64,000 nt of DNA from a virus (IMGVR_UViG_3300042922_000982:64001-128000), one strand, 5' to 3'. Numbered from the stretch's first letter, positions 5,116-42,191 are shown. Notes: a model not told the origin generated them from the letters alone. Translations and numbers: made by a program.

Positions 5116-5123
5116 CACCCGCC

Positions 5124-5160
5124 GGGCCCCCAGGAACGGTTTTCCGGGGGCCCGGATAAC
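5124..5160 (+). promoter_or_regulatory. repeated promoter-like element, copy 1 (GGAAC-N16-GGATAA)
   Basis: GGAAC 5133, GGATA 5154. Confidence 0.75.
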
Positions 5161-10534: not shown

Positions 10535-10560
10535 TCGTTTGGGGTAAAAAGGGGGCCTCG

Positions 10561-10610
10561 GGGCCTTGAGGAACGGTTTTTCTTGGGGCAGGATAGAAGG
10601 TAGTAGGGGC
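10561..10610 (+). promoter_or_regulatory. repeated promoter-like element, copy 2
   Basis: GGAAC 10570, GGATAG 10591; directly after a terminator. Confidence 0.8.
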
Positions 10611-11365: not shown

Positions 11366-11378
11366 CGATCGAGGCCCA

Positions 11379-11455
11379 GGGCCCCCAGGAACGGTTTTTT
11401 CGGGGCCTGGATAGTAGAGAGTAGGGAGGGGGCCGGTTGCCCGGCGCCCTCCCCC
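11379..11455 (+). promoter_or_regulatory. repeated promoter-like element, copy 3, + 5' stem-loop
   Basis: GGAAC 11388, GGATAG 11409, GGGAGGG..CCCTCCC hairpin. Confidence 0.8.
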
Positions 11456-13489: not shown

Positions 13490-14234
13490 CGCCCGCTTCA
13501 CCGTTCGGCCCATGGGGGGCCGCGTCCGCACCCCCGAGGACTCCCTGCGCGCCAAGGCCGCCATCAGCCTGAAGCATGCGCATGGCGATCTGCTCAAGCT
13601 GCTGGTCTCGGACGGCCCGGACTACGTCGACGACCCGGAGGCGGCCGGGGCGATCAACCTGGCCGACGGCCTGGTGTCGTTCGGGCGCGTGTGGCCCATG
13701 GACACGCCCAACATGGCCATGAGCTACGCCAAGCTGCATCCGCTCTACCCCGGCGAGTGGGGCACCTTCACCGTGCGTCCCCTCACCGCGCGCGAGTGGG
13801 AGGCCATCCCGTACAAGAAGCGGCTGGAGTGCACCTTCTTGACGATCATCTACGAGTGGCCCGAGGGTCCGGACTACAACCCGCCCCCCGAGCGTCCGCC
13901 CCTGCACATCGCCGACGTCGTGCCGGTGAAGCAGCTGCAAGCGGCGATCGACACGGCCTTTCAGGCGATCGAAAGCGAGCGCGCCCTGCGCTTCGAGCGC
14001 GATCCGTGGGTGCTGACCCCGCAGACGCTGCCCGACGCGCTGGCGCGCTCGCTCGCCGAGCTGATCCCGATGGCCGAGGCTGCCAACCTCAACGACGGCC
14101 ACCCCCTGGGCATCGTGGAGGGCGCCAAGCGCGCGCTCCGCGAGTGGAGCGCCCTGGTCAACCCGACACCCCCGCCCCCGGCTTCTAGCCGGGGTATCGG
14201 GCCCCCAGGAACGGTTTTTTCGGGGCGTGGATAG
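13482..14234 (+). CDS. hypothetical protein; 3' end runs into promoter repeat
   Basis: GGAGG RBS. Confidence 0.7.
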   Translation: MRSARFTVRPMGGRVRTPEDSLRAKAAISLKHAHGDLLKLLVSDGPDYVDDPEAAGAINLADGLVSFGRVWPMDTPNMAMSYAKLHPLYPGEWGTFTVRPLTAREWEAIPYKKRLECTFLTIIYEWPEGPDYNPPPERPPLHIADVVPVKQLQAAIDTAFQAIESERALRFERDPWVLTPQTLPDALARSLAELIPMAEAANLNDGHPLGIVEGAKRALREWSALVNPTPPPPASSRGIGPPGTVFSGRG

Positions 14235-16965: not shown

Positions 16966-16984
16966 GCGCCCGATCGGGCCGCCA

Positions 16985-17066
16985 GGGCCCCCAGGAACGC
17001 TTTTTTCGGGGCGTGGATAGTAGATAGTAGGGAGGGGCTACCGGGCAACCGGCGGCCCCTCCTCCG
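16985..17066 (+). promoter_or_regulatory. repeated promoter-like element, copy 5, + stem-loop
   Basis: GGAAC 16994, GGATAG 17015. Confidence 0.8.
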
Positions 17067-20249: not shown

Positions 20250-21128
20250 ATGTCCAAACCGCCTCGCCCCAGATTCATCGTCACGTCCTCGCCCCATATG
20301 GCCGACGATTTCTTCCGCTCCCGGCACGAGATCGCCAAGAGCGTCACTGTGCGGCGCGTCCCGGCCGCCGAGTTCCCGCCTTTGCCCAGGGCGGCCTCGT
20401 GGGGCACGGCGGCCACGGTGCCCCTCGTGGGGGCCCCGACGGCGGCGCCGTTCAGCGTGCCCGAGCGCACGCCCGATCACGCGGCGATCGCCGGGCACAT
20501 CACGCGCCTGATCGCCCACCTGCACACGCCGCCCCCCATGCCCGAGCCCACCAACGTCATGCGCGGCCTGCTCGCACCCGATCTGCGCGAGGCGATCGCG
20601 CGGCAGCGGCAGGGTGCCGACCTGTTCAGGCAGGCGGCCCAACGCGACGCGGAGGGCATCGCCACCGGCCGCATCGAGCTGCGCGCGGACAACCGCGTCC
20701 CGCCGGATCAGGTGCACCTGTTCGATCGCGCCGGGCGCCGCACAGGTGCGATCACCAACCTCGACAACGACACCCTCTCGGCCCCATGGCCCACCGGCGT
20801 ATGGGCGGGCGACCCCCGCGAGGAGGCCCCGTGGCCGTACCGGCCGCGCCGGGGTGGCGGCTTCATGCAGATGGACGAGCAAGCCTTCAAGCCGAAGGAG
20901 CCCCCGATGCGGACGATCGCCTTCAAGTGCCGGGGCTGCGGCGCCACGGGCGTGGTCGACGTGCCCGAGCCCATCTTCAACGACGTGGGGGTGAAGGTGG
21001 TCGTGGACATGACGCAACAGGCCACGGCCGACGGCTGCCTCAAGTGCATGGACGCGGTGCATGGGCTCGGCTACTCGATCGGTGTGACCTACCCCTACCC
21101 GGCCGACTGGCTCGAGCCCCGGCGGTAG
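20250..21128 (+). CDS. hypothetical Pro-rich protein, C-terminal CxxC pairs
   Basis: GGAGAACCGCCATG start. Confidence 0.75.
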   Translation: MSKPPRPRFIVTSSPHMADDFFRSRHEIAKSVTVRRVPAAEFPPLPRAASWGTAATVPLVGAPTAAPFSVPERTPDHAAIAGHITRLIAHLHTPPPMPEPTNVMRGLLAPDLREAIARQRQGADLFRQAAQRDAEGIATGRIELRADNRVPPDQVHLFDRAGRRTGAITNLDNDTLSAPWPTGVWAGDPREEAPWPYRPRRGGGFMQMDEQAFKPKEPPMRTIAFKCRGCGATGVVDVPEPIFNDVGVKVVVDMTQQATADGCLKCMDAVHGLGYSIGVTYPYPADWLEPRR

Positions 21129-21210
21129 GGCCCCCAGGAACGGTTTTTTCGGGGCCTGGATAGCAGGTAGTAGGGAGGGCTGGGCGGCACGCGCCGCGCA
21201 CCCCTCCCCG
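21128..21210 (+). promoter_or_regulatory. repeated promoter-like element, copy 6, + stem-loop
   Basis: GGAAC 21137, GGATAG 21158. Confidence 0.8.
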
Positions 21211-22254: not shown

Positions 22255-22264
22255 GGGGCCGCCG

Positions 22265-22582
22265 ATGACGACCCCGAAGATCACCAGGAAGGCCAAGGGC
22301 CTGCTCGACAAGCCCCTGGTCCTCGACGCCATGATGAACGGCCGGTACGTCGTGGAGACGAAGGCGGGCCGTTTCGTCGGCGCCTTCGACACCATGGGGG
22401 AGGCGCAAGAGGCCGCATTCAACGACGAGCGGGCGGCGCACCACGAGCTGCACTACCCGCTCGACGAGCAGGCCCTGCGCAAGCTCAGGATCCGCATGCT
22501 CGAAATCCCGAGCGACGAGCGGGTGGTGCGGGCGATCGCCGCGCTTGACGACGCCATGAAAAAGCGCGGGGTCACCGCGTAG
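22265..22582 (+). CDS. hypothetical protein
   Basis: operon packing, codon usage. Confidence 0.7.
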   Translation: MTTPKITRKAKGLLDKPLVLDAMMNGRYVVETKAGRFVGAFDTMGEAQEAAFNDERAAHHELHYPLDEQALRKLRIRMLEIPSDERVVRAIAALDDAMKKRGVTA

Positions 22583-22665
22583 GGCCGCCAGGAACGGTTT
22601 TTCACCCGCCTGGATAACAGGTGGCAGGGAGGGCTGGGCGGCACGCGCCGCGCACCCCCCCCCCG
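22582..22665 (+). promoter_or_regulatory. repeated promoter-like element, copy 7, + stem-loop
   Basis: GGAAC 22591, GGATAA 22612; hairpin shared with copy 6. Confidence 0.8.
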
Positions 22666-27314: not shown

Positions 27315-27329
27315 CCCCCACGCACCTGC

Positions 27330-27362
27330 AAGGCCCGGCCGCACCACGCGGCCGGGCCTTTT
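27330..27362 (+). terminator. intrinsic terminator
   Basis: AAGGCCCGGCCGC/GCGGCCGGGCCTT + T run. Confidence 0.85.
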
Positions 27363-27375
27363 GTCGTTTGGCCCA

Positions 27376-27404
27376 TTGGATCCGGCCGGGCGCGGTGCTA
27401 TAAT
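27376..27404 (+). promoter_or_regulatory. sigma-70 promoter TTGGAT-N17-TATAAT with extended -10 (TG)
   Basis: consensus -10, canonical spacing. Confidence 0.75.
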
Positions 27405-27441
27405 GTGTTATGTTTCACCTGCCTGCCGAAAGGAGCCCGCC

Positions 27442-27759
27442 ATGGCCGTCCGCGATCCCGAGAGCCACCTGCGCCAGGCCATCGAGGAGGCCGTGCACCA
27501 CCTCAAGCACGCCCGCCGCCCGATCGCGATCGTCGGCTACTCCCCGGTCGATGCCGCCCTCGAGACCCTGGAGCGCGCCCTGCGCGGCGTGACGCCCGCG
27601 CCCGATTGCCTGGAGGGCGCGCACCCCGCCGACTTCCGCCTCACCACCGGGCAGCCCGAGGTCGACCCGGTGCACGCCTGCGCCGCGCACCTGCCGCTCG
27701 CCCTGAGCCGCTACAAGAACGCCCAGGTGGTTGCGCTTGAGCAAGCAGGCGTGGTATAG
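27442..27759 (+). CDS. hypothetical protein, stand-alone transcription unit
   Basis: GAAAGGAG RBS. Confidence 0.7.
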   Translation: MAVRDPESHLRQAIEEAVHHLKHARRPIAIVGYSPVDAALETLERALRGVTPAPDCLEGAHPADFRLTTGQPEVDPVHACAAHLPLALSRYKNAQVVALEQAGVV

Positions 27760-27796
27760 TCGCGGCTGCTTGTCTGGCTTCAACGGTTCTCATCCG

Positions 27797-27828
27797 AAAG
27801 GCCCGGTCCCTGTGGACCGGGCCTTTTG
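27797..27828. terminator. bidirectional terminator between the two genome arms
   Basis: AAAGGCCCGGTCC/GGACCGGGCCTTT stem at the convergence point. Confidence 0.85.
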
Positions 27829-27834
27829 GTGTCT

Positions 27835-28470
27835 TTAGCCCCACACGCCGTAGGTGTTCGGCTTCGGCGGCACCGGGCCGTCGGCGGCCGGGCCCGGCCG
27901 CCGGGGCTGCGTCGCCTTCGGCGCGGGCGGGGTGTAGGGCGTCACCTCGGCGTCGGAGCGAACGTAGAGCGGGTGGCGCGGGTGACCATCCTTCGTGGTG
28001 CCGAGCGCGTGGAGCTGCTTGTCCGGCACCTCGCGGGCGAGCAAGTCGAGCACCTCGCGATCGCGGCCCCGGTAGGTGCCGTCGGTGCCCCACGCGGCCA
28101 CGGGGATGTCGGCGCGGCGGACCGCCTCGACGATCGCGCGGTCGTTGGCGGCACTCGACGGCTCGTCGACGGTGCGCAGGCCCTTCGGGTCGGTCGAGCG
28201 CAGATCGAATAGGTTGACGACCTCCAGCCGCCCGGCGCCCAGGCGCTTGGCGTGCTTGACGCAGCGCGTCACGGTCGGGTCGAGCTTGAAGGCGTCCGCG
28301 ACCGAGGGATTCAGCATCAAGAACGTGGCCGTCTTGGGGTTGTCGGGATCCCACTCGCGGGTCAGGTGCTGGCGGTGCGTGCGCGCCTGGTTGAACACGG
28401 CCGAGGCGCGGCCGTGGGGGCCGTCGTCCTGGTGGTCGATCACCAATTCGGGGGCGAGGTAGTCGGGCAT
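27835..28470 (-). CDS. DUF1643 family protein
   Basis: FLMLNPSxAD..DPTxxRC..VNLFxxRSTDP..AWG..TKDGHPRHPLY motifs; AAGGAGG RBS. Confidence 0.9.
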   Translation of the reverse strand: MPDYLAPELVIDHQDDGPHGRASAVFNQARTHRQHLTREWDPDNPKTATFLMLNPSVADAFKLDPTVTRCVKHAKRLGAGRLEVVNLFDLRSTDPKGLRTVDEPSSAANDRAIVEAVRRADIPVAAWGTDGTYRGRDREVLDLLAREVPDKQLHALGTTKDGHPRHPLYVRSDAEVTPYTPPAPKATQPRRPGPAADGPVPPKPNTYGVWG

Positions 28471-28550
28471 GGCGGTCCTCCTTTCAAGGGAGCCCCATGA
28501 TAGCGCAAGACCCCCGGCTTGCCGAGGGTCTTGCTGGCCTTGACGGCCCA

Positions 28551-28640
28551 TGGCGCTGGGGCGGGACTCGAACCCGCATGCCCCGCTCGGGGGCAAGGTT
28601 GCGCACACACCCTCCGTCTACCGTCTTCCGGCACCCAGCG
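28551..28640 (-). ncRNA. tRNA-like RNA 1 (class II-like body, aberrant 9-nt anticodon loop, 3' GCCA)
   Basis: GCTGGG/CCCAGC acceptor, CCG-GAAGACGGTAGA-CGG D arm, long variable arm, GCGGG-TTCGAGT-CCCGC T arm; TGcTACACT -10 at 28646-28654. Confidence 0.8.
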
Positions 28641-28665
28641 GTTCCAGTGTAGCACGCAAACGGCA

Positions 28666-28693
28666 ACACACCCCGGCGATCGCCGGGGTGTGT
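28666..28693. terminator. perfect 28-bp palindrome centred on GCGATCGC, between RNAs 2 and 1
   Basis: ACACACCCCGGCGATCGCCGGGGTGTGT. Confidence 0.65.
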
Positions 28694-28695
28694 CG

Positions 28696-28836
28696 TGACC
28701 GGAGCAGGACTCGAACCTGCAAGGGCTTGTCCCACGGGTTTCCCCGCACCCGCCGTTCACGGCGAGCAGCCTATCTCCCACGTCTGAGGTGGGTAGTCGT
28801 CCTTTCAGGCAGCGTATGCCATTCCGCCACCCGGCC
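28696..28836 (-). ncRNA. tRNA-like RNA 2 (141 nt, expanded anticodon and variable regions)
   Basis: GGCCGGG/TCCGGTC acceptor, Leu-like D arm GCG-GAATGGCATA-CGC, GCAGG-TTCGAGT-CCTGC T arm; TGcTACACT -10 at 28844-28852. Confidence 0.8.
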
Positions 28837-28867
28837 GGTGGCCAGTGTAGCATGCGATCGCCACATA

Positions 28868-28905
28868 CACCCAGGCCCCGGACCGTGGGGTCCGGGGCCT
28901 GGGTG
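28868..28905 (-). terminator. 17-bp stem hairpin ending the large ncRNA
   Basis: CACCCAGGCCCCGGACC/GGTCCGGGGCCTGGGTG. Confidence 0.7.
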
Positions 28906-29288
28906 CGTCTACCCCCTCTGAGAGGAAGGTTGAAAGGGTGGGGTTTTGGCAAGGTGATCCCCGAACTTCGGAGCAAGCTCCGGGCGCCACGCAGGGCGAC
29001 GCCACCTGCACCGTGTAAATTTCCAACTCAATCCCAACTCTTGCAAGCGGGGCGGGGTCGGCCACGGTGCGCCTCGAATCTGGTGGGGCTGCGCGGCGGG
29101 ATTGAGGCCCGCCGTCAAGCCGCTCTGATGCAAGGGAGCGACCACCATTCACGCGATTTCAGGTCGCGCTAACCGAGGGATTGTTCGCCGCTGGGCGCCC
29201 CCACTCCTTGCCGAGCCTGGGAAAGCTTGCCGGGGCTGCCTGCCGGGGCCGAAACCCCCGCCGCCGCCGCCGTGCGCTGCGAACAAGC
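28906..29288 (-). ncRNA. putative ~380-nt structured ncRNA of unknown class
   Basis: no credible ORF; nested helices, UUCG tetraloop and G-U pairs favour the minus strand; upstream TTGCCA-N18-TAATAT and downstream hairpin. Confidence 0.6.
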
Positions 29289-29337
29289 TAATATTAACCC
29301 GCCCCTAACCTGGCTGGCAAGGGGCGGGCCTGTTTTT

Positions 29338-29565
29338 TCACGAATTGATCGCCGATTCGTCGCGGGCCACCACCTGCTCGTAGACGATGTCCTCGGCTAC
29401 GAGCCAATCGTGGACCGCCTGTTCGGCGTCGTCGAGGCTTGATCTGGCGATGGTGATCTGCAAGGTGCGGGGCCTGGGAAGATCCTTCAAGTGCAGGGTG
29501 GTGGTGCGCTCCGCTGATACGAAGCGCACCCCCGACACCGTCACCTGGAAGGTCGTCTGTTCCAT
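29338..29565 (-). CDS. hypothetical protein
   Basis: follows the large gene in the same orientation. Confidence 0.55.
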   Translation of the reverse strand: MEQTTFQVTVSGVRFVSAERTTTLHLKDLPRPRTLQITIARSSLDDAEQAVHDWLVAEDIVYEQVVARDESAINS

Positions 29566-29586
29566 GGCCCCGGCCCTGCCGATCGC

Positions 29587-32500
29587 CTACTCCAGATCCG
29601 GCTCGGCGTGCCCGGCGGTACGGCCGGGCGCGCGATCGCTGCGTTTCTTGCCCATGAACTGGGCCTTCACGCGAGCGGGAGCCGCCTCGGCACCTTCCAC
29701 CCGGCCGAAGCGCGCCGCCTGGCGCACCTCGCCTGCCAGCTTCTGCTTGCGGGCAACCGCGATCCCCTTCTTCTCGTCCAGGGTCGAGACCCCGGCCGTG
29801 TGCGAGCGGGTGATGACGCGGTGCACGATCGCCTTCGGCACCGAGCCGGTGAGGCGGGCGTGACGCCCGTAGAGCTGCTCCAGGTTGGCCTGGTTGTAGT
29901 CGCCGTCCAGGTCGATCAGGTGCGTGCCGCGACCCAGGTTGACACCCGAGGCCGCGATGTTCGAGCTGACGACCAGGATCTTGTGCGCCTCGTTCTCGTT
30001 GAAGCTCTTGACCGTATCGTTGCGCGAGGCGCTGATGCGGGTGTCGTGCTTCTCGACAGGCGACGTCTCCTCGTCCTCCGCGCCCGGCTCGGGCGTGAAG
30101 TCCTCGTCGGTGCCGCCCGCCTCCTCGTGCGCCGCCTTCAGCTCGTCTTGCGACGCGCGGATGACGCCGTACTTGTAGCCCAGGCGATCGGCATCGGCGC
30201 CGCCCGCCATCTTCTGCACGTCGGCATGGGCCCGCTTGAGGCGTTCGTACGTGTTGGACGTCTCGGGGAAGGTGCTGAGGCGATCGCGGGTGTCCGCGTG
30301 CGCCCGCGCCACCGCCTTGAGGTTGCGGTGCTCGACCTCCTCCTCGTGCGTCAGACCGCCCGCCGCCGCCTTGGCGGACAGGTGGTTGTGGCGCTCGTAG
30401 GCGTGCTTCGTGTTGTCGTGGGTGTCTTGCAGGCTGGCCTTGAGGGCCTGGTGCTTGGTCGCCTCTTCGTGCATCTGGCGCTCGATCGGCTCCAGGCTGC
30501 TCTCGAGGTGGCGCTTGGCGTTGGCGCCCGAGTACTCGCCCATCACGCGCTTGGCCACCCCTTCGAGGTGGTTCTGGCCGTTGACGCGCTTGGAGGCGAG
30601 GATGATCTTGGCGTGGGGGTCGTTGCGCATGATCTCGCGCACCTTGTCCTCCACGGCCTTGATCTTGTGAGCGTGAAGCTCCTCCTCCGAGTGGGCGATC
30701 GCCGCCAGGGCGCCCTTGCCGATCTTGCCGTCCTTGCCGCCGCCCTCGATCGCGCTCATGGCGCCAGAGCTGTGAAGCTCCTCGTGGTGGCGTTGGATCA
30801 TGGCGTCGTGCTCGGGGCCGAGATCGACGTGCATGTCCTGCAACTGGGCCGACGGGGGACGCATCTCGGCGTCGAGGTCCTCGTTGGTGGAGGTCACCAT
30901 GTAGCGGCTGAGCTTGTTACCCAGCTCGGCCTTCTTCTCCTCGTTGATGCCGATCAGGTGGCCGGTCGACTCGTCCTTGATGCCGTAGTTCTTGATGAAC
31001 TGCTTCTCGGTGCCGAGATCGTGCTGGCCACGGTGCGTCATGTTGACGAGGTTGAGCTGCTCGCCCAGGTGGTTCTGGATCGGCGTGCCCGTGAGCGCCA
31101 TGACGCCCTTGGCCCGGCCGTGCTGCGACGCCTTCAAGCCCGCGTCCTCGTGGTCGAGGCCGTGGATGTAGGCGTCCACCACCCGGCGCTGGCCGCCCTG
31201 CGTGCCCGCGCGGTTGAGCGTGTGCGCCTCGTCGACGATCACGCCGTCGAAGCCCTGCTCTTTCAGGTGCTGGGCGATCGGCTTGCCGCCCACCTTCTTG
31301 TTGCCGTGCACCGGGGCGCCGTCCTCGCCGAACAGCTCGTGCGCCTTGATGTTGTGCTCCGCCTCCAGGGCCGCCTGGACCTCGGGCCGGTGCAGATCAT
31401 CGTGCGTGAGCCCCTTGTCGCGCATCACGTCCGCGAGCTTGACCGCCCCGATGCGGGTGGCCTTGTTCGCGAGCATGGAGCGCGTGACGACGTGGTACTT
31501 CGCGTTCGGGCTGATGTCCTTGCCGAACGAGATCTCGCCGCCCTCGTGGTGATCACCGGCGCCGGGCAGGTGCGGCTTCATGCCGAAGAAGGCCGCCGCG
31601 TCGTCTTTCCAGGCTTTCGCCTGGGTGGTGGAGGGCACCACGACCAGGTGCTTCTGCGCCGCGTCCGGGTTCTTCACCTTGGCAAGCTCGGCCGCCGCGA
31701 GCGCGGAGCTGGTCTTGCCGTTGCCGACGCCGAGCGCGCTGATGGTGCGCTGCCCGCCGTTGACGTAGTGGTGAATCATCTTCTGCTGGTGCTTGGTGAA
31801 CCCGATCTGACGGCCGTTGGTGTCGCCGTTGATGTGGCTCAACAGGCCAGGGATCGCCGTGGTCGCCTTGCCCTCGGGGCCGTAGACGTGAGAGCCCAGC
31901 TCGTCGAAGCCGTTGATCTGGTCGGCTGCGAGGGCCGCTTTTTGGCGGACCTGCTGCAAGCGCGGCAGGATGTCGCCGCGCAGCTTGACGCCGCCGAGCA
32001 GGTGCGTGATGCGGTCGACCGCCTCCATGGGCACGACCAGCCCGCGCTTGCCGCCCTTGGCGTTGGCCAGCTGGCCGTAGCCTTCCTCTTTCAGCATGCC
32101 GAGCACCTGGGCGATCGCGTGCGCCTTGCGGATCGCCTGCGATTGCTCGGTGGTGGTGCCGAGGTTGGCGTCTTCCAGCCCGCCGAGGCCGTGCTTCTCG
32201 CCCAGCTCCTTGATGATGGCCTGCTCTTGCGCCTGGGTGGGCGTGCCCTTCCAGAACATCTTGTGCTTGACCATCGCGTTGGCCAGCTCGATCAGCTTGC
32301 CCTCGGGATCGGTGGGGTCCGACGGCAGGCTCAGAATGGCGCGCGGCTCGGGCGCGTCGATCTCGGGCAGGCCGTCCTTGACGCGCTGCTTGTTCGCCTT
32401 CAGGCGCGCCTTGCGCTCGTCGGCGGACTCGGGCTGCTCCATCTGGATGGTGGGCACGTCGGCGTGGGCCTTGCGGTCCGCGTCGGCGAGCTTGGCGTCG

Positions 32501-35500
32501 ACGATCGCCTTCTCCTCGGGCGTGTGGGCCTCGAAGTAGGCGTGGGCCTTCTCGCGGCTCCAGTTGCCCAGGGCGGTCATCTTGTCCTGCTTGGCGTCGT
32601 AGCCCGCGAAGAGCTGCTTGCCGTTGTGCTCCACCGGCCCCTGGTGCTGGGCCAGGCCGCCGGTCTCGCCGATGATCTCGTGCAGGCGCTTGCCCGCCAG
32701 GTTGCCCTGGGTGATCACGGGCGACCCCTTGTGGTCGTACGTGACATGCATGAGCCAGTGGCTGTTGCCGTTGGAGAGGTGCACCACCGAGCTGGTGCCC
32801 GCCAGCGCGCGCAGCTTGCGGTTGAGGTCGTCGGCGGTGTGGATCACGGTGTCGCCGAGCAAGCCGCCCCAGTACTGATCCTTCACGCGGCCGTCGGCGC
32901 CGATGTGAATGTCGATGTCGTGGCCGTCGTGCGTGCGCGCGGTGAACGTGCGCGTGCCGTCGTCTTGCTGGGCGCCTTCCTTGAAGTCGACCGGGGCGTC
33001 CTCTGCCGCCGCCTTCGCCTTCTCGCCCTTGGTGGCCGTCTTGCGCACCTTGCCGTCGGCGACGGTGCGCTTGTGGCCCGCGATCTGCTTGGCGACGTGC
33101 TCGCTCAGGTCGTTGCCCGAGCTGTTCTGAATGGCCGCGTCGAGCTCCTTGTTGAAGTCGACCGCCAGGTTCTTGTTGTCGAGCCCCAGGTGGCGGTACA
33201 GCGCGGCGGCCGGGATGGTCCCGTCCTTCTTGCTGCCGGGCACCTGCGTCCCGTGCTCCGTCTCCGCGAACAGCTCGGTCTTGTGACCCTTCTTGCTCTT
33301 GGCGTCGTAGCTCTGGCGGACGTGAACGTGGACCGTCTTGCCCTCGTGCTGGATGGTGAACTTGTGCTCTTTCGCCGCCTTCTCGTCATCCGCGTGGCTG
33401 TGATCGCCGAAGTCGCCGCCGCCCGACAGGTGCGCGTGAAGCTCGGAGATGTGCTTGCCCACGAAGGCCGAGGGACCGGCGGCAATCTGGCCGCCCTTGG
33501 TGATGTACACGGCGCGCCCGTGCATGGTGATCCAGCGCCCGCCGGGGTACTTCGAGAGCATCTCGGCGCCGATCCCCTTGAGGATCAGGTCGTCGAAGGG
33601 CTCGTCAACGCCCGCGACCAGCGCGTCGGCCACCCGGTAGGTCAGGCTGCCGGTGTAGCTCTTGGCGATCGCCTCGTCCACCTGGGACAGAGAACCCGGC
33701 CCGGCAAACGCCGCCATCTGGAAGATGAGGCCGTTGGCGCGGTCGACCACGGTCCAGACGCGATCGTCGCCGCCCAGGCTCTTGACCAGGCCGGTGTCGG
33801 CCAGCCACATCTTCACCGTGCGCTGCGGCTCGGCGTCGAGGGGCCGATCCTCGAACACGAAGGCCATCAAGCGGCCCTCGGCGGTGTAGGGCATCAGCCC
33901 CTTGGTCAGCTCGGTGCCGTGGAAGTCCTGGAGGTCGCCCGCCAGCTGGAGGTGCTGCTTGGCGTTCATGAGCATCTTGCGGCCGGTGCCGGGGTGGTAG
34001 CCCAGGCGCTCGAACACGTCCGACACCGCGATCCAGCTCTTCTTGCCGCCCACCACGTCCTTGGTGGACTTGGGGGTGGTCAGCATGGCCATGTAGTCGC
34101 CCTTCCACTTGAGGAGGTTGAGCGCCAGCTGGTACTTCTGGCCGTTCGGGTTGACCTTCGAGGGCTTGACGCCGCCGTTGACCAGCATGCGATTGACGAT
34201 CATGTGATCGTTAATGGCCACGGGCTCGCGATCGGCGGCTTGCAGGAGCGCCTTGTACTCCTTGCCCTTGCGCTGATCCTTGGGCACCTTGCGCACCGCG
34301 CTCTTGGCCGCCTGGATCTCGGCGTTCTGCGCGTTCAGGTCGTCCTTGGCGCGCTTGAGGCCCTCGGCCATGGCCGGAACGTGCTCGTGCTTGAGCATGT
34401 CCTTGAGCGCCTTGCCGCCGTCCTCGAGGCCCGCCGACACGACCACGGCGTAGCGCGCGCGGGGGTCGGGAATTTGCGCGATCGCCGCGCCCATGAGGGC
34501 CTGCAACCGCTCCGAGTGATCGGCTTGCGCCACCTGGGCGAGCGGGTCGACGCCCTTGCCCTCGACCAGATCGCCGAGCGTGCCCGCTTGATCATCGTCG
34601 CCCGCCGGGGCGTCGAGGTGGGCGGCCACGACCTCGTGGGCCAGGCGCGACAGGCGCTTGACCTCGGCCGTTTCGACCTGCATGGCGTGAGCCAGCTCGG
34701 TGTCGGTGGCCGGGCGGCCAAGCTCCGTCTCCAGGGCGCCGCGCACGCGGCTCATCTGGGTCAGGCTGGTGTTGTCGGCCTGCGACACGCGAATGGGGCT
34801 GACGCCCATGATGTCGCGCCACTTGCGGCTCAACTCCTGATCGACGGTGCCCGCCACCTGATCGTGCAGGCTGGTGATGCGCTCGGTGGGGTCGTGGCGA
34901 CCGATCACCTGCCACGCGCTCATGCGGGCGTGCTGCGCCATGTCGGCGAAGAACGAATTGCTCGCCGGGCGGCCCTTCTCGTCGACGGAGGCCGTCATGC
35001 CGAGCTTGCGCATCCAGTTACCGGCGATCGCCACGATCTTCGGCTCCATGTTGCGCAGGGTCGCTTCTTTCACCCGGCGCTCCAGCTCCGGGGTGTAGTC
35101 CTTGTAGCCCTTGAGCTTCTCGCGGATCCGCTGCTTCGCCTCGTCGCCGTCGGCGAGGAAGAGCTGGCCTTCGAGCTTCTTCTTCTCGGCGAACTTGCCG
35201 AGGTGCTCCTCGAACACCGCCTGCTTCTGCACGCGGGCCGCCGCGCCCTCGGCGCTGTCCTTCTTGAGGCCCGGAATGTCGAACAGGGGGGCGGGCTTGC
35301 CGAGCGTCACCTTGGCCGGGGCCGCCGCCGTGTTCACCTTCGCGCGCACGTCGGGCTCGGCCCAGGCAAGCGAGCCCTGCGGGCCCACGCCGGGGAGCGT
35401 CTTGGGGGTCTTGGGCTTGGCGGCGGCCTTCGTCGCCTTCGTTTTCTTGCCGCCCGCCTCGCCGTGGGTGCCCACGGTCAGGACCGGCTGCTTGGCGTGC

Positions 35501-35973
35501 GCCTTGACCTTGCCGCCCACATGGACGCCGGTCTTGCCCGCCTTGGCGGCAGCCTTGGTGGCCGGGGCGATCGCCGCCGCCTTCTTGGGCGATTGCGCCT
35601 TGAGGGCCGTGCTGGCCTTGCCCGTGGTGGGCTTGGTCGGCGCCTTGGCGACGGCCTTGGCCTTCACCTTGGCCTTCGGCGCGGCCACGGTGGCCGCCTT
35701 GCCCGCCTTCTTCGCGGGCTGGGCGCCCACGGGCTTGGCCTTGGGCACCGCCGCGCTGGCCTTGCCCTTGGTGCCCTTGACGGCCGCCTTGGTGGCCTTG
35801 GGGGCCGCGCCCGCTTTCGCGTCCTTCTTCTTGAGCTTCGCTTCCTCCAGAAGCTTGGCCGCGAGCGCGCTCACGACCTTTTTCTTGTTGACGTTGCGGG
35901 TGGTCTCGCGCACCTGGTAGACCGTGCCCGTTTTGGTGTGGCTCTGGTGAGCCTTCACCCTTTCGGTACTCAT
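29587..35973 (-). CDS. 2,128-aa polyvalent protein: N-terminal tag, K/A/P-rich linker, sigma-70-like domain, SNF2-family helicase
   Basis: AGGAGG RBS; SNF2 motifs GVGNGKT, LVVVP, IVDEAH, LTGTPIQN, SGVNL, QLYGRHAR; sigma-like DMAQHARMSAWQVIGRHDP, LETELGRPATDTELAHAM, HLDAP..TLGDLV. Confidence 0.88.
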   Translation of the reverse strand: MSTERVKAHQSHTKTGTVYQVRETTRNVNKKKVVSALAAKLLEEAKLKKKDAKAGAAPKATKAAVKGTKGKASAAVPKAKPVGAQPAKKAGKAATVAAPKAKVKAKAVAKAPTKPTTGKASTALKAQSPKKAAAIAPATKAAAKAGKTGVHVGGKVKAHAKQPVLTVGTHGEAGGKKTKATKAAAKPKTPKTLPGVGPQGSLAWAEPDVRAKVNTAAAPAKVTLGKPAPLFDIPGLKKDSAEGAAARVQKQAVFEEHLGKFAEKKKLEGQLFLADGDEAKQRIREKLKGYKDYTPELERRVKEATLRNMEPKIVAIAGNWMRKLGMTASVDEKGRPASNSFFADMAQHARMSAWQVIGRHDPTERITSLHDQVAGTVDQELSRKWRDIMGVSPIRVSQADNTSLTQMSRVRGALETELGRPATDTELAHAMQVETAEVKRLSRLAHEVVAAHLDAPAGDDDQAGTLGDLVEGKGVDPLAQVAQADHSERLQALMGAAIAQIPDPRARYAVVVSAGLEDGGKALKDMLKHEHVPAMAEGLKRAKDDLNAQNAEIQAAKSAVRKVPKDQRKGKEYKALLQAADREPVAINDHMIVNRMLVNGGVKPSKVNPNGQKYQLALNLLKWKGDYMAMLTTPKSTKDVVGGKKSWIAVSDVFERLGYHPGTGRKMLMNAKQHLQLAGDLQDFHGTELTKGLMPYTAEGRLMAFVFEDRPLDAEPQRTVKMWLADTGLVKSLGGDDRVWTVVDRANGLIFQMAAFAGPGSLSQVDEAIAKSYTGSLTYRVADALVAGVDEPFDDLILKGIGAEMLSKYPGGRWITMHGRAVYITKGGQIAAGPSAFVGKHISELHAHLSGGGDFGDHSHADDEKAAKEHKFTIQHEGKTVHVHVRQSYDAKSKKGHKTELFAETEHGTQVPGSKKDGTIPAAALYRHLGLDNKNLAVDFNKELDAAIQNSSGNDLSEHVAKQIAGHKRTVADGKVRKTATKGEKAKAAAEDAPVDFKEGAQQDDGTRTFTARTHDGHDIDIHIGADGRVKDQYWGGLLGDTVIHTADDLNRKLRALAGTSSVVHLSNGNSHWLMHVTYDHKGSPVITQGNLAGKRLHEIIGETGGLAQHQGPVEHNGKQLFAGYDAKQDKMTALGNWSREKAHAYFEAHTPEEKAIVDAKLADADRKAHADVPTIQMEQPESADERKARLKANKQRVKDGLPEIDAPEPRAILSLPSDPTDPEGKLIELANAMVKHKMFWKGTPTQAQEQAIIKELGEKHGLGGLEDANLGTTTEQSQAIRKAHAIAQVLGMLKEEGYGQLANAKGGKRGLVVPMEAVDRITHLLGGVKLRGDILPRLQQVRQKAALAADQINGFDELGSHVYGPEGKATTAIPGLLSHINGDTNGRQIGFTKHQQKMIHHYVNGGQRTISALGVGNGKTSSALAAAELAKVKNPDAAQKHLVVVPSTTQAKAWKDDAAAFFGMKPHLPGAGDHHEGGEISFGKDISPNAKYHVVTRSMLANKATRIGAVKLADVMRDKGLTHDDLHRPEVQAALEAEHNIKAHELFGEDGAPVHGNKKVGGKPIAQHLKEQGFDGVIVDEAHTLNRAGTQGGQRRVVDAYIHGLDHEDAGLKASQHGRAKGVMALTGTPIQNHLGEQLNLVNMTHRGQHDLGTEKQFIKNYGIKDESTGHLIGINEEKKAELGNKLSRYMVTSTNEDLDAEMRPPSAQLQDMHVDLGPEHDAMIQRHHEELHSSGAMSAIEGGGKDGKIGKGALAAIAHSEEELHAHKIKAVEDKVREIMRNDPHAKIILASKRVNGQNHLEGVAKRVMGEYSGANAKRHLESSLEPIERQMHEEATKHQALKASLQDTHDNTKHAYERHNHLSAKAAAGGLTHEEEVEHRNLKAVARAHADTRDRLSTFPETSNTYERLKRAHADVQKMAGGADADRLGYKYGVIRASQDELKAAHEEAGGTDEDFTPEPGAEDEETSPVEKHDTRISASRNDTVKSFNENEAHKILVVSSNIAASGVNLGRGTHLIDLDGDYNQANLEQLYGRHARLTGSVPKAIVHRVITRSHTAGVSTLDEKKGIAVARKQKLAGEVRQAARFGRVEGAEAAPARVKAQFMGKKRSDRAPGRTAGHAEPDLE

Positions 35974-36065
35974 ACGCTCCATCCTCCTATTGGCATGGGA
36001 TTGGCGTTCCGAGCGTAGCACGGGCAAGCAGCCGAAAAGGCACCATTTGACACCTTAGACGCAAT

Positions 36066-36105
36066 TATCCCCGAGGTGGGCCTGTTGGGCCTTCCTCGGG
36101 GATAA
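36066..36105 (-). terminator. hairpin downstream of tRNA-like RNA 3
   Basis: TTATCCCCGAGG/CCTCGGGGATAA. Confidence 0.55.
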
Positions 36106-36128
36106 CTGCGGACTCCCGCCATGGGAGA

Positions 36129-36278
36129 TGGCGCCGTGGCAGGAATCGAACCTGCGATCTGAGGCTTCTCTGTTCCCGGCCGCCTGGGGGAGGTACTCCC
36201 GAACCGGGCGATATGGCCCCTCTCTCTACCTGGGTCGGGGTCTTGCAGGCACCCCTTCCGCCTGATGGTCATCACGGC
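36129..36278 (-). ncRNA. tRNA-like RNA 3 (150 nt, acceptor + T arm + GCCA, non-tRNA interior)
   Basis: GCCGTG/CACGGC acceptor, GCAGG-TTCGATT-CCTGC T arm, TATACT -10 at 36285-36290. Confidence 0.75.
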
Positions 36279-36293
36279 GGGACCAGTATACCC

Positions 36294-36665
36294 TCATGCG
36301 TAATCGATCGCCACCACGCGATCGCCCCAGCGGCCCACGTTGCTGTCGTCGAGGTCCTCGGTGAGCCCCGCGAACATGGCCGGGCACCATACCCATCCCT
36401 CCGGCAGCGGCTCGGCGCGGGCCATCACGTTGAGCCACCCGCCGGGGGACGCCCAGAGGGTCGGGCACAGCCGGAAGTGCCCCCGGTGCTGGGCCCACAC
36501 CGACGCCTCGTTCATGTTGGACAAGAGCCCCCACAGGAACGCGTACCACCCGGCCGTCACGATGGGCACCTTCACCACCACGCCCCCGATCAAGAGGGCA
36601 TGGCGGGTGGCGCCGGTGGCGATCGCCAACCGGCCGGGCAAGCGGCGCGCCAGGCCCCTCACCAC
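36294..36665 (-). CDS. minimal protein-kinase-like protein
   Basis: GATR..VVKVP..NxxE..EDLDDSNVG....VAIDYA pattern; start uncertain. Confidence 0.6.
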   Translation of the reverse strand: MVRGLARRLPGRLAIATGATRHALLIGGVVVKVPIVTAGWYAFLWGLLSNMNEASVWAQHRGHFRLCPTLWASPGGWLNVMARAEPLPEGWVWCPAMFAGLTEDLDDSNVGRWGDRVVAIDYA

Positions 36666-38569
36666 AGCAGGGGCGCCTCGGTGTCGCGCGGCACGGTAAC
36701 GACCGCGTCGCGATCGCCGCGCCAATCGCCCACGCTCTTGGCGAGCCCGCCGCCGTGAATCTCGGCGTAGGTCAGCTGGGTCTCCTTCACCCCCTTGAAC
36801 TCCTTGTGCGCCTTCACCTTGGCCGACATGTCGTAGGTGGTGCCCGGCTTGAGGCCGGTCGGCTTGGGGCTGAACCAGGAGGCCAAGTTGCCCTGCTCGT
36901 CGGTGAACTTGTGCAGGTAGCTGGTGCCCCAGGCGTTGGTGATGGGGCGCGGCTCCTCGAGCAGCTTGAACTTGCCGGTCACGGGCGCGCCCGGCACGCC
37001 GATGTGGCCCGAGCGCTTCGGCGCGTTGACCATGCCGTTGGCGCGGGCGTCTTTCGCCGCCGTATTGGCCGCCTTGATGGCCGTGCGCTCCGCCTGCTCG
37101 GGGTCGACGGGCGCGGGCCTCGGCGCCGCCGCCTTGAGGGGCCGCCCGGTGCCGACCAGCTTGTGCGCGAGCGCCACGTCGCGCGGCGACGGGTTCTGCT
37201 TGACCAGGTGGAAGCCGTCGTAGTCGAAGCCCGCGTCCATGAGGATGCGCCGCAGCCCCCTGGAGGTCTGCGGGAAGGTCAGATTGACGCCCAGGCCCCG
37301 CTTATTGGGGCCCTCGCCGTGCCGGACGGCGCCGTTGTAGCCGTCGTAGGTGCCGGGCGTGCCCATGTCGGGGCTGACGCCGTGATCGAGCCCGGTCACG
37401 CTGTAACCCGCGTGATCGACCTGCGAATTGCCGATGATCACATGGCCGAACGGGCCCAGCACGACATGGTGGCCCTGCGTGCCGGGGCCGAGGTAGACGT
37501 GGTGGTCGTCGCCGAGCTTGACCACGTCGCCGGGGCTCAGGGGCGCCTGGGCGCCGTCCTTGCCCGCCTTGTCGTTGGCGATCGCCCCGGTGTGGGTGAT
37601 GCCGCGCTGCCTCAACTCGTAGTCGACGTCCGGCGGCAGGGCCGGGCCTGCGGGTGGCTTGCTCATCTTCTTCGGTTCCCCGGGCGTTTTGTCCACCTTC
37701 ACGGCCAGCCTTGGCTCGCGTTCGGTGGGCTTGGCGGTCGCCCGCTTCACTTTACCCTCCGCCGGGGCCTTCGCGCCAGATGCCTCGGGCTTGAGCGTGT
37801 GCGCCTTCGGCTTGACGAGCTTGGGCGCCTTGCCGGGCGCGGCGTCCTTCTTGACGGCCGCCTTCGGCGGCGCCTTGTCCGCCTTGACGGTCGCCTTCGG
37901 CTCGGGGGCGGGCTTGGGCGCCTGCTTCTTCACCGTGGCGATCGCCGCCTTGGTGGTCTTGGGCTTGGCGGCGGCCTTGGTCGCCTTGGGGGCCGCGCCC
38001 GCCTTCGCGTCCGGCTTGACCTTCTTGGCGGGGGCCTGCTTCGCCACGGCGGCCTTCGGCTTGGCGGCCGGTTTCACCGGGGTCGCCTTGACGGCGGGCT
38101 TCGGGGCCCTGACGGCGGGCTTGGGGCGGTTGACGCGCAGGTGATCGTGCGCCGCTTTCACCCAGGCCGCCGTGGCCGTGTCGACCGGGTGGGTCGTGTC
38201 GTTGGTGAAGGTGTACTTGTCGCGGGCCGTGGCGATCGCCGCCTTGATGTCGGGGATGGCCATGCCCTGGAAGTGCGCCCGGTGCTCCAGATAGACCTTG
38301 TCCGCGAGCGCCTTGAGCCGGGGGTCGGTCAGCCGATCAATGAAATCGCTGGCCTCCTTGGCCGTGATCGGCGCCGAGGCCGGGGCCGTCGCCGCGCGCG
38401 CCTCGATAGCCATCTGGCTCGCCATGGCGGCCACCAGCGCCCGCTTGTTGACGTTGGCGGTGTGTGCGCGCACCTGCGCCACCTTGCCGCCCTTGGTGCG
38501 GCGCTGGTGCGCCCGCACGTTGACCAGGGCCTTGTTCAGCCCGTCGATCGCCTGATCCACCTGTCCCAT
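36659..38569 (-). CDS. putative internal head protein: N-terminal tag, K/A/P-rich region, C-terminal OB-fold-like domain
   Basis: AGGAGG RBS; SGHIG..FTDEQGN..W..VKAHKEFKGVKETQLT. Confidence 0.8.
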   Translation of the reverse strand: MGQVDQAIDGLNKALVNVRAHQRRTKGGKVAQVRAHTANVNKRALVAAMASQMAIEARAATAPASAPITAKEASDFIDRLTDPRLKALADKVYLEHRAHFQGMAIPDIKAAIATARDKYTFTNDTTHPVDTATAAWVKAAHDHLRVNRPKPAVRAPKPAVKATPVKPAAKPKAAVAKQAPAKKVKPDAKAGAAPKATKAAAKPKTTKAAIATVKKQAPKPAPEPKATVKADKAPPKAAVKKDAAPGKAPKLVKPKAHTLKPEASGAKAPAEGKVKRATAKPTEREPRLAVKVDKTPGEPKKMSKPPAGPALPPDVDYELRQRGITHTGAIANDKAGKDGAQAPLSPGDVVKLGDDHHVYLGPGTQGHHVVLGPFGHVIIGNSQVDHAGYSVTGLDHGVSPDMGTPGTYDGYNGAVRHGEGPNKRGLGVNLTFPQTSRGLRRILMDAGFDYDGFHLVKQNPSPRDVALAHKLVGTGRPLKAAAPRPAPVDPEQAERTAIKAANTAAKDARANGMVNAPKRSGHIGVPGAPVTGKFKLLEEPRPITNAWGTSYLHKFTDEQGNLASWFSPKPTGLKPGTTYDMSAKVKAHKEFKGVKETQLTYAEIHGGGLAKSVGDWRGDRDAVVTVPRDTEAPLLW

Positions 38570-38597: not shown

Positions 38598-40223
38598 CTA
38601 CTGCTCGTGGCCCTCCTGCGCGCGCTCGTGAAGGATGCTCGTGTACACGTCCGCCGCCGTACCCAGCGCGTGCAGCGGGTTGAGGCCGTGGCCCTTCTTG
38701 CCGTGCCCCTTGCCCTGTTTCTTGCCGTCGGCGTCGTGCGGCCCCTCGGGCAACTCGGGCGCCGTGCCGGGGAGGTCGTCCGCGTGATCGTGCGGATCCG
38801 AATCGTCGGCCACCGGGGGCTCGGCGCTCGCGCCGTCGGCCGCCGGGGCCTCGGCGGGTTCCGGGGCGCCCTCCTGGCCATCCTGGGCGCCCTCCGTGGG
38901 GGTGTCCGGGGCGGGGGTTGTGCCCTTCTTCTTGCCGCCCTGCTGCTCGCCGGTGTTGGCGTCCGTGACCGGCCATTCGCGCGTGGGGCGATCGCCGTCG
39001 CCCTCCGCGTCGGGCGCGGGGGCGCTGGGCGGCTCGGGCTCGGCCACCCCCGGCATGGGGGCCATGCGAGGCGCGTGCGGCGCCGCCGGAATGACCTCGT
39101 CGGCCGGAACCTGGGCCTGATCGGCCTCCGCCGTGGCGCGCTCCTCGTAATTGCCGACCCGCTCGGTGTGGGCGTCCTCGAGGGCCGCGTGCTGCTCGGT
39201 GGCGGTGGTGCCCGCAGGCGCCTTGGGGGGCGCCTTGCCCTCGGCCTTCGCCTTTTGGGCGGCCTTGTCGTGCTCGGCTTGCGCCTGCGTGGCCTCCTTG
39301 TCGGCGGCGGCGGCCAGGTCGGCCTTGGCCTTGACCTCGGCCTCGGTGGGCAGGGTGTTCACGGCCTGGCGAATGTCGGCCCAGGCGGTGTCCCACGCCG
39401 GGCCCTCGTGGCCGTTCGATTCGGTGTGGGCGTTGAAGTGGTGACCGAGGGCGATCGCCTCCTCTTTGGTGCTGGCCTGCATGGCCGCCACCTCGAAGTG
39501 GCCGGGGGTCTTGAGCTTGTCCGCCCCGCCGCGCACGAATCCGGGCACCGACGTGGGCGTCTTGGCCTCGCCGCTGCGCAGGCCGTCCGGGCTGGCCTGG
39601 CGCGCCTTGACCTTCACGCTGGAGCGCACGTCCGACGAGTCCCAGCCGCTCGCGGCCTGGCGGACCGCCTCGTACTGGCCGAGGACGTGGCCGTGCTCCG
39701 GGCTGCCCGGCGGCAGGGCGCGCAGGTGCGCGAGCATCTGGCTGCCCGCCTCGTGGAGGTGGTGCGGCGCGTCCGTGCCCATGGCCTGCTTGGAGGCCGC
39801 CTTCGGCTTGCCCTTGCCCTCGGCGCGCTTGGCGTTGGATGTTTTACCGGCGGCCGGGCCGGGGGCGGGGGCGTCGTGCGCCACCCGCTTGGCGCCGAGC
39901 TTGCTCAGGCGATCGGCGTGCGCGGCGCTGCCCGCGACGTGGAATTGGCCCCGGTGCGCGAAGATGGCCGCGCCGGGGGTCTTATTGGCGTGGGCTACCG
40001 CCTTTTTCTTGGAGGCGAAGGTGGTCACCTCGCCGCCCGCGCGCATCTTGGCGATCGCATCCACCATGGCCGTCTTGTTGACGGTCATCTGGTGCTGCTT
40101 GACCTGGATGACGTGCCCGTCTTTCGCGTGGGACTCGTGCGCCCGAACGTCGGTCATGCCCTTGACCATGTCCTCCAGCGCGGCGAGCGCCGTGTTCAGC
40201 TTGCCCCCGTTCGACGTGCCCAT
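38598..40223 (-). CDS. putative internal head protein with N-terminal tag and acidic/Pro-rich tail
   Basis: VRAHESHAKDGHVIQVKQH tag; domain paralogous to the MuF C-terminus. Confidence 0.8.
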   Translation of the reverse strand: MGTSNGGKLNTALAALEDMVKGMTDVRAHESHAKDGHVIQVKQHQMTVNKTAMVDAIAKMRAGGEVTTFASKKKAVAHANKTPGAAIFAHRGQFHVAGSAAHADRLSKLGAKRVAHDAPAPGPAAGKTSNAKRAEGKGKPKAASKQAMGTDAPHHLHEAGSQMLAHLRALPPGSPEHGHVLGQYEAVRQAASGWDSSDVRSSVKVKARQASPDGLRSGEAKTPTSVPGFVRGGADKLKTPGHFEVAAMQASTKEEAIALGHHFNAHTESNGHEGPAWDTAWADIRQAVNTLPTEAEVKAKADLAAAADKEATQAQAEHDKAAQKAKAEGKAPPKAPAGTTATEQHAALEDAHTERVGNYEERATAEADQAQVPADEVIPAAPHAPRMAPMPGVAEPEPPSAPAPDAEGDGDRPTREWPVTDANTGEQQGGKKKGTTPAPDTPTEGAQDGQEGAPEPAEAPAADGASAEPPVADDSDPHDHADDLPGTAPELPEGPHDADGKKQGKGHGKKGHGLNPLHALGTAADVYTSILHERAQEGHEQ

Positions 40224-42069: not shown

Positions 42070-42191
42070 GGGCATCCTCGGGGAAACGGGCGATCGGACC
42101 TCCATTGTAGCGGCAGATGCGTCCGAAAGGGCCGAAACCGCCAGGCCGCTTGTGGGCCTGGCGGTTTCGGGATAACGGGCGATCGCCGCAC

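Follow-up and report, generated by a model that had tools for sequence, protein, structure and literature searches.

Phages are known to start transcription either with the host holoenzyme on host-like promoters or with an injected RNA polymerase (RNAP), as in N4, phiKZ/AR9 and crAss-like phages. In phage T4, a short N-terminal signal on internal proteins, the capsid-targeting sequence, is found. N4 gp50 and the virion RNAP (vRNAP) of AR9/phiKZ are described as injected polymerases that read phage early promoters unreadable by the host enzyme (PMC4496689, PMC5312081). Phage-encoded sigma factors are well known too, as free-standing proteins (PMC7824862). For the polyvalent proteins described in 2017 by Iyer, Burroughs, Anand, de Souza and Aravind, capsid packaging and injection are predicted; SNF2 serves among them as a hub domain, and a MuF/portal neighbourhood is taken to indicate packaging (PMC5512222). 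A literature search returned no demonstrated virion-packaged sigma factor and no sigma domain in a polyvalent protein, and, within the literature searched, a sigma factor is recorded from phage particles only once, by one peptide in a preparation of phage SU10. Here we describe a gene in a 64,000-nucleotide (nt) stretch of a virus genome (IMGVR_UViG_3300042922_000982:64001-128000; "the window", in which positions are counted from the first letter). This gene, on the minus strand at 29587-35973, joins a sigma-70-family module to an SNF2-type ATPase in a single product of 2,128 amino acids (aa), which we call the giant. Our preferred reading, to which we give a probability of roughly 0.4, is that the giant is a polyvalent-type head-module protein that delivers a sigma factor together with an SNF2 motor.

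The genome is a 157,406-bp IMG/VR virus record rated 100% complete. It is that of an uncultured tailed phage, a myovirus, with the genes for the major head protein (recognised through PHROGs), the tail sheath and the baseplate in another minus-strand arm. The giant gene is one uninterrupted open reading frame (ORF), whose longest reading spans 29587..36027 (minus strand) with the stop codon at 29587-29589. The G+C content at third codon positions (GC3) was 0.94 over this entire ORF and the translation is that of a normal protein. The best start is ATG 35973, which is preceded at 8 nt by AGGAGG and gives a product beginning MSTERVKAH. A preliminary description, made from the sequence of the window alone, had placed the gene at 29587-35973; GC3 and the AGGAGG-spaced ATG bear out these boundaries, and all of the peptide strings that it quoted are present in the translation. 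Residues are numbered here from TTG 36027 (P0001 numbering), so that ATG 35973 is residue 19; the numbers of the database copy, P0003, are those of P0001 minus 15. The window has a G+C content of ~70%, which gives long ORFs on either strand. A plus-strand ORF opposite the giant (29608..36018, 2,136 aa) was rejected as a high-GC shadow because its translation is of low complexity (R/L/G/A/V).

The giant is made up of five parts, all read from the minus strand. A ~45-aa leader (35842..35973) is followed by a basic, low-complexity linker of ~190 aa (~193 aa at 35263..35841), which at residues 63-255 contains 26% Ala, 22% Lys, 10% Pro and 10% Gly and has a net charge of +38. Next come the sigma-70-family module, with regions 2.1-4.1 and the first helix of region 4.2 at 34384..35073 (residues 319-548), a conserved middle region of ~580 aa (31801..33573) and the SNF2-type ATPase (29851..31800). 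Neither megablast nor tblastn of the giant against 50,697 GenBank phage records gave a match at E<=1e-5; the helicase part alone gave marginal matches to phage records, with identities of <=30%.

The sigma-70-family module in the giant is genuine. The Pfam model Sigma70_r3 (PF04539) matched residues 424-495 (34543-34758, minus strand) with 35.9 bits against a cut-off of 25.3. In a genome-wide search the same model scored 42.2 bits for the giant, its sole match in the genome, and it was also at or above cut-off in four relatives (P0006, P0007, P0008 and P0010). A PDB sequence search with residues 300-760 returned exclusively RpoD, SigA, SigB, SigS and FliA chains (best E 2e-5), in alignments that span region 2.4, region 3 and region 4.1. 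The significant NCBIfam matches (E<=0.05) were sigma models throughout, with the cyanobacterial RpoD family first and a SigB/F/G model reaching into region 2 of the segment. A profile of the sigma segment built from three homologues was used for an exhaustive search of 1.84 billion representatives, which returned 221 proteins at E<1e-3. Beyond the giant's own family, these were ordinary sigma factors of 200-650 aa with the consensus DLIQEGN.GL...FSTYA.WWIRQ...TLGD...RER.VL.LR.GL. When the family of 11 members described below was aligned with 36 real sigma factors using hhalign, the probability was 99.7% (E 4.8e-26), with family columns 73-300 paired with sigma columns 56-263 of 310, corresponding to region 2.1 through to the first helix of region 4.2. 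The first 50 Foldseek PDB matches of an AlphaFold2 (AF2) model of the segment (predicted local distance difference test, pLDDT, 68) were all sigma factors, in keeping with the sigma fold proposed in the preliminary description. In VIA-align, domain 2 of M. tuberculosis SigA was covered in full (122 residues) by model residues 2-147 (Z 10.6, root-mean-square deviation 4.3); full-length structural alignments began at sigma-70 residue 107 and extended to residue 612, which they reached through model residue ~444.

The features of sigma factors that engage the polymerase core are kept in the giant. The region 2.2 core-binding motif D-[LM]-x-Q is retained, with FAD[LM].Q paired by hhalign with DLIQEG, and D347 and Q350 (P0003 numbering) are invariant among the six giants. 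The region 3.2 finger is also retained, LDAP..GD...TLGD being aligned with SLDaP......TLgD. Conservation of these two motifs argues for true insertion into RNAP, and region 4.1 (DPRARYA...GLEDG) likewise aligns with sigma factors. We consider it probable that the module binds the RNAP core. Towards its C-terminal end, the best-conserved element in all 11 family members is a distal helix-turn-helix-like motif, ..VSDVFERLGY....GRKML.NAK.HL (33949..34032, minus strand; model helices 403-414 and 421-435), whose distance from region 4.1 ranges from 37 aa in P0009 to ~130 aa in the giant. Like free-standing phage sigma factors, the giant has the sigma-70 fold in regions 2, 3 and 4.1 and comes from a phage with no recognisable RNAP of its own, so that the host core is presumably redirected. 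Unlike phiEco32 gp36, SPO1 gp28 and the RpoD-like and SigF/FliA-like sigma factors of large phages, its module is embedded at the end of a head-gene block and fused to SNF2, its region 2.3 is non-canonical, and in its family 37-130 residues separate region 4.1 from the distal helix-turn-helix.

The C-terminal third of the giant carries the main SNF2 motifs, as first described. The Pfam models ResIII (residues 1410-1616, 30.2 bits, cut-off 22.5), SNF2-rel_dom (residues 1643-1766, 33.3 bits, cut-off 24.9) and Helicase_C (residues 1999-2059, 33.2 bits, cut-off 23.5) all matched above their cut-offs, and in PHROGs the giant matched phrog_62 'DNA helicase' (E 4e-27). Lobe 1 contains GNGKT, DEAH and TGTPIQN; there is a long helical insert, and lobe 2 contains motifs V and VI (QLYGRHARLTG). 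Since these four motifs are legible and invariant across the six giants, the ATPase looks active. In the PDB, the helicase part matched generic lobes of the Rad54/Ino80 kind best, none at better than E 1e-4, and its weak best NCBIfam matches were defence-associated SNF2 families. If the sigma module binds RNAP, the giant would resemble RapA/HepA in coupling an SNF2 motor to the polymerase, here through a covalently attached sigma module, but it has no specific sequence relationship to RapA/HepA. The middle region (residues ~818-1400) contains GGRW[IV]TMHG, His-rich beta segments and SNG..HWL..V.YDHKG. Searches with P0003 residues 733-1310 gave no Pfam, NCBIfam or PDB sequence match and no usable Atlas feature match, and the AF2 model of the region (pLDDT 66) had neither a Foldseek PDB match nor an Atlas structure match; this absence of matches does not show that its fold is new.

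The fusion of a sigma module to SNF2, which was proposed from the window alone, is real and conserved in six lineages. A word-indexed search identified two relatives of 2,123-2,157 aa with 47-49% identity over the sigma segment. Shorter homologues of this segment were not found by word-based search; the exhaustive search did recover them. It also identified three further giants, P0006, P0007 and P0010 (2,148-2,250 aa), which share the giant's Pfam pattern and match it colinearly from end to end at 30-44% identity. In total, six colinear giants from divergent metagenomic phages share 30-53% identity, the five others being 2,123-2,250 aa long. Five further, shorter proteins (523-649 aa) comprise only the leader and the sigma module, without SNF2, which brings the family to 11 members. 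An IMG/VR peptide-pattern search for relatives found none.

The leader is not confined to the giant. The pattern V[KR]AH..[HR].K.G.V..V[KR]......NK..[VL]..[LM]A begins three consecutive proteins, and a regular-expression search of all six frames of the 157-kb genome found it in three places only, namely the giant and the 636-aa (36659..38569, minus strand) and 541-aa (38598..40223, minus strand) genes upstream. A hidden Markov model (HMM) of 17 aligned leaders found the same three ORFs only (E 5e-18), in agreement with the claim that the giant and two neighbours share a tag at their start. The HMM also detected leaders outside its training set, in the LPD1 protein of locus L008 (E 2e-14) and in three further neighbours at locus L007 (E 8e-8, 1e-7 and 1e-4). 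In these phages the leader is common to 3-4 adjacent proteins, and the cargo behind it differs between proteins and between phages. A search for leader-bearing proteins in a set of 5.8 billion proteins found one new protein only (P0156). This arrangement is reminiscent of T4 capsid targeting in that a short signal is found on several unrelated proteins near head genes, with a motif at a possible protease site. The leader differs from the T4 signal, to which it has no sequence similarity, in being ~45 aa long and, in some proteins, internal, behind an LPD1 or NUDIX domain.

The order of genes on the minus strand is large terminase (56361-58376), portal protein (44560-46257), NUDIX and MuF-like minor head protein (40225-42477; leaderless, with an uncertain start codon), 541-aa protein, 636-aa protein, giant and a 75-aa ORF (29338..29565) that occupies the same place in loci L001 and L003 (36-49% identity). 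The giant gene therefore lies downstream of portal and MuF genes on the same strand, as had been stated. The 636-aa protein has a linker rich in K, A and P, and its C-terminal domain, of the phrog_2319 type, is also found in cargo proteins of the relatives. A stretch of 130 residues at the C-terminus of the NUDIX-MuF protein (612-744) aligns with residues 140-289 of the 541-aa protein at 37% identity, so that the two, a MuF protein and a putative cargo, have a domain in common.

Upstream genes could be read at five loci, and at each of these the family member closes a co-directional portal/MuF/NUDIX/LPD1 block as its last large gene, opposite a convergent small-gene arm. LPD1, a polyvalent-protein domain, recurs in these blocks. 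At L008 the order is portal ... NUDIX, HNH, a 1,421-aa LPD1 protein and the giant; at L007 a NUDIX+LPD1 protein and 431-aa and 847-aa proteins precede a 649-aa leader-sigma protein. At L001 and L003, large cargo proteins precede the giant, and one of them (L003) has a Pfam LPD1 match (E 1.7e-12). On the P0008 contig, whose upstream genes were not readable, the 523-aa leader-sigma gene also faces a convergent small-gene arm. With three or more modules in its 2,128 aa and a place downstream of portal/MuF, the giant looks as expected of a polyvalent protein. Like the polyvalent proteins of PMC5512222, it is a giant multidomain protein beside portal and MuF genes with SWI2/SNF2 and with LPD1, NUDIX and MuF-type neighbours. 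It differs in its sigma-70 module (the word 'sigma' is absent from that paper) and in its lineage-specific leader. The block-closing position in five loci, the shared leader and the lack of a recognised RNAP or other sigma factor in the genome mean that gene context supports a head-associated, possibly injected giant. On the strength of where the genes lie, their common leader, the polyvalent-type neighbours, the basic linker and the conserved motifs at the module border (considered next), procapsid loading of the three leader-bearing proteins is fairly likely.

Leaders that are not N-terminal are preceded, ~4 residues ahead, by an [LM]-x-K-[AG] motif (LNKA, MVKG, MAKA, LAKA, LEKA, MEKA or LRKA). 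In the window these are LNKA in the 636-aa protein and MVKG in the 541-aa protein. The leader is internal in one protein each of L001 (6434-9424, residue ~414) and L003 (3-3305, residue ~353), where the part before it comprises a weak ddrB-ParB match (L001) or LPD1 (L003). A cut at the preceding [LM]EKA would yield two proteins in each case. Each giant has 7-13 [LIMVF]xK[GSA] motifs, only three of which are conserved in all six. These three [LM]-x-K-[GS] motifs, LTKG, LVKS and LKGI at P0003 K694, K734 and K802 (33574..33909, minus strand), sit between the sigma module and the GGRW[IV]TMHG motif and are candidate maturation-protease sites. Of the two interpretive terms in the preliminary description, 'polyprotein' and 'virion-packaged', the first would be apt if these sites are cleaved.

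A second set of elements on the opposite strand bears on what the sigma module might read. A 52-nt promoter-like element is present in 17 near-identical copies with the consensus GGGCCCCCA-GGAAC-GGTTTTT..-N-T-GGATAG-TAGATAGTAGGGAGGG. All 17 are on the plus strand at genome positions 32.3-86.6 kb, ahead of the genes of the plus-strand block, which are mainly small and of unassigned function; none lies in the minus-strand arms. The spacing from GGAAC to GGATAG is 16 nt in 17/17 copies, which is a -35/-10 geometry, and downstream of each element there are a leader hairpin, a conserved CACCCCCACCG box and a AAGGAGAACCGCC-ATG start region. Seven copies, as GGGCCCCCA-GGAAC-N16-GGATA(G/A), fall in the window, at 5121..5159, 10558..10596, 11376..11414, 14196..14234, 16982..17020, 21125..21163 and 22579..22617 (all plus strand; within 5121-22630). 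One clear copy is found in the equivalent arm of the relative L001. IMG/VR contained no exact match to the element, and 101 single matches on metagenome contigs were discarded as chance, with position weight matrix scores of <25 compared to 37-82 for true copies. The 11-mer GGAGAACCGCC occurs 26 times, and the positions listed fall in the plus-strand block.

Pfam searches of the genome gave no match to Sigma70_r2, to Sigma70_r4 above cut-off or to r4_2, nor to the RNAP beta (Rpb2_6) or beta-prime (Rpb1_2) models, while the controls were positive for both sets. The absence of a T7-type RNAP match is uninformative since that model was silent in every control genome. We infer that the 17 elements resemble a phage-specific promoter class, of which the giant's sigma module would be the sole phage-encoded candidate reader.

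In the model that we favour, the leader would target the three proteins into the procapsid, like the T4 capsid-targeting sequence or MuF-linked cargo. A maturation protease would then cut at the conserved [LM]-x-K-[GSA] motifs, separating a ~145-kDa SNF2 piece from a ~75-kDa piece with leader, linker and sigma module, which is about as large as the stand-alone forms of the relatives (523-649 aa). The packaged proteins would exit the capsid together with the DNA, and the sigma module would bind the host RNAP core and direct it to the opposite arm, with its 17 phage-specific GGAAC-N16-GGATAG promoters, ahead of all phage protein synthesis. The SNF2 motor would act on the entering DNA or on RNAP; its task might be to remove bound proteins, to protect the DNA or pull it, or to recycle RNAP in the manner of RapA. 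The proposed logic is that of the virion RNAPs, in which a preformed transcription component is carried in the capsid. Virion RNAPs are complete polymerases, whereas the giant would bring only a promoter-specificity subunit and use the host core. That every step holds, from packing, cutting and injection of the giant to the reading of the 17 promoters in advance of any phage protein, strikes us as unlikely.

Several observations weigh against this model. The region 2.3 aromatics for -10 melting (FSTYA..WW) are replaced by T.L.D.V.G, and the region 2.3/2.4 columns read kT.L.d.VrG.V.Q.LfR.WR, in which the Tyr/Trp positions are not conserved. Group 3 sigma factors are also known to lack the WW pair, and the non-canonical region 2.3 weakens the case for sigma activity without excluding it. 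The profile alignment ends in the first 4.2 helix, short of the recognition helix, and there are two helix-turn-helix candidates, a proximal pair right after region 4.1 and the distal RLGY motif. The Pfam r4 and r4_2 models had no match above cut-off in the giant. Of the sigma regions 2, 3 and 4 read in the preliminary description, regions 2, 3 and 4.1 hold; its placement of region 4.2 in the distal motif, after an insert of ~130 aa, is plausible, with a competing helix-turn-helix at the canonical place. Because the alignment stops before the recognition helix and two candidates compete, promoter-specific initiation by the module is not assured, and we put it at slightly better than even.

The leader has no match to a known targeting signal or Pfam family. 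Pfam HK97-type capsid and S78 protease models gave no match in the genome, and no prohead protease was identified in it, which leaves the proposed cleavage without its enzyme. The convergent arms of the more distant relatives L007 and L008 carry other upstream motifs (for example, ACCCTCT...TTGTA at L007 and TTCTACATAACTT-N-CGATA[GA]G, twice, at L008), in too few copies to show promoter-sigma co-variation. The Pfam models used might miss a divergent RNA polymerase, such as one of the N4, crAss or YonO type. GATAGT keeps A2 and T6 of the -10 element, and a host primary sigma with a phage activator could read the elements. Finally, the 'early' status of the plus-strand block is assumed from its small genes of unassigned function.

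The alternative that survives best is that the giant is an ordinary, non-packaged phage sigma factor fused to a helicase, made de novo from a host-type promoter and switching RNAP to later genes. The leader would then serve another purpose, such as complex assembly or regulated turnover. Characterised phage sigma factors, among them SPO1 gp28, phiEco32 gp36 and large-phage RpoD-like sigmas, are all known to work in this way, the sigma module itself is well supported, the BFVD matches of its model are free-standing phage sigma factors, and the 17 promoters might mark a middle rather than an early class. For such a protein, however, it is unexpected that the leader of a plain regulator should be common to adjacent, unrelated cargo (LPD1, NUDIX). 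The gene also ends a portal/MuF/polyvalent block in every lineage seen, and the special promoters lie in an arm of small, takeover-like genes, not before structural genes. We regard this alternative as somewhat unlikely.

Docking or decoy action, without promoter recognition, is less probable again. Here the sigma-like module would block host sigma or bring SNF2 to RNAP in a RapA- or Mfd-like manner, and host sigma with a phage activator would read the 17 promoters. This would suit a module in which the core-binding features (region 2.2, the 3.2 finger and 4.1) are kept and the -10 melting residues and 4.2 helix are non-canonical, and GATAGT could suit a host primary sigma; RapA is a known RNAP-bound SNF2 enzyme (PMC7824862, PMC5512222). 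Against it, the 11 family members, the SNF2-less forms included, show strong conservation of region 3 and the distal helix-turn-helix, which argues that the sigma part has a function of its own, and no other phage factor was identified to explain a 52-nt element that is near-identical in 17 copies.

A DarB-like anti-restriction or DNA-protection protein, in which SNF2 is the working part and the sigma-like part is merely DNA-binding or structural, would fit the role of SNF2 ATPases as hubs of injected polyvalent proteins (PMC5512222), the defence-associated NCBIfam matches of the helicase and the N6/N4 methylase gene just upstream of the L003 giant, recalling a methylase-helicase dyad, but is very improbable given that no methylase domain is found in the giant or an adjoining gene in this genome, that the giant has no sequence similarity to P1 DarB or any cultured phage, that the region 3.2 finger motif, meaningful only inside RNAP, is retained, and that sigma-only family members exist. 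The giant and its immediate neighbours in the window gave no methylase family scores and, unlike P1 DarB, the giant thus forms no methylase-helicase dyad; the earlier label 'P1 DarB type' is imprecise. Only at L003 does an N6_N4 DNA methylase gene (3363-4157, plus strand) lie directly upstream of the giant, as a methylase-helicase pair in trans.

Further features were noted around the giant gene. The last minus-strand gene is a DUF1643/phrog_3230 gene (E 2e-38; 27835-28608), beyond which the arms converge at ~27.3-27.8 kb. ARAGORN called an 89-nt tRNA-Ala(TGC) at 28552-28640 (minus strand), overlapping the start of the DUF1643 ORF call. About 160 nt upstream of the giant, a TATACT box precedes a tRNA-like 3' half (36129-36293, minus strand). 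This comprises a T arm GCAGGTTCGATTCCTGC, the acceptor pairing GCCGTG/CACGGC, a discriminator G and CCA, followed by a 12-bp hairpin, TTATCCCCGAGG / CCTCGGGGATAA. This half was called by neither ARAGORN nor Rfam, and an Rfam search of 27000-38000 had no match at E<=0.1. An unannotated ORF of up to 143 aa (36294-36725, minus strand) overlaps the end of the 636-aa gene and stops just before the tRNA-like element.

The cyanobacterial HIP1 palindrome GCGATCGC occurs 191 times in the genome compared to 6.3 expected (30-fold; 1.2 per kb), and GCTAGC occurs 0 times compared to 53 expected. The HIP1 density is ~1 per kb in the relatives L001 and L003 and 0.55 per kb in L007, and there are none in L008. 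These counts point to a high-GC cyanobacterial host. In contrast, the terminase is nearest (~26% identity) to terminases of Rhodococcus, Streptomyces and Thermus phages.

This analysis adds a conserved sigma-SNF2 fusion, a leader family, a set of border motifs and a 17-copy candidate promoter to what is known of such proteins. If the preferred reading is correct, a capsid-delivered sigma factor would be a third and cheaper strategy for early transcription, which uses neither a host sigma nor a virion RNAP. It would also explain how first genes can have non-host promoters in a phage that encodes no polymerase. The discrete, conserved sigma segment of ~450 aa, the 17-copy candidate promoter and the candidate leader and cleavage sites make this a testable case. 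Regardless of how the giant is delivered, the sigma module joins the domain repertoire of polyvalent proteins, and the leader could act as a capsid-loading signal for foreign cargo.

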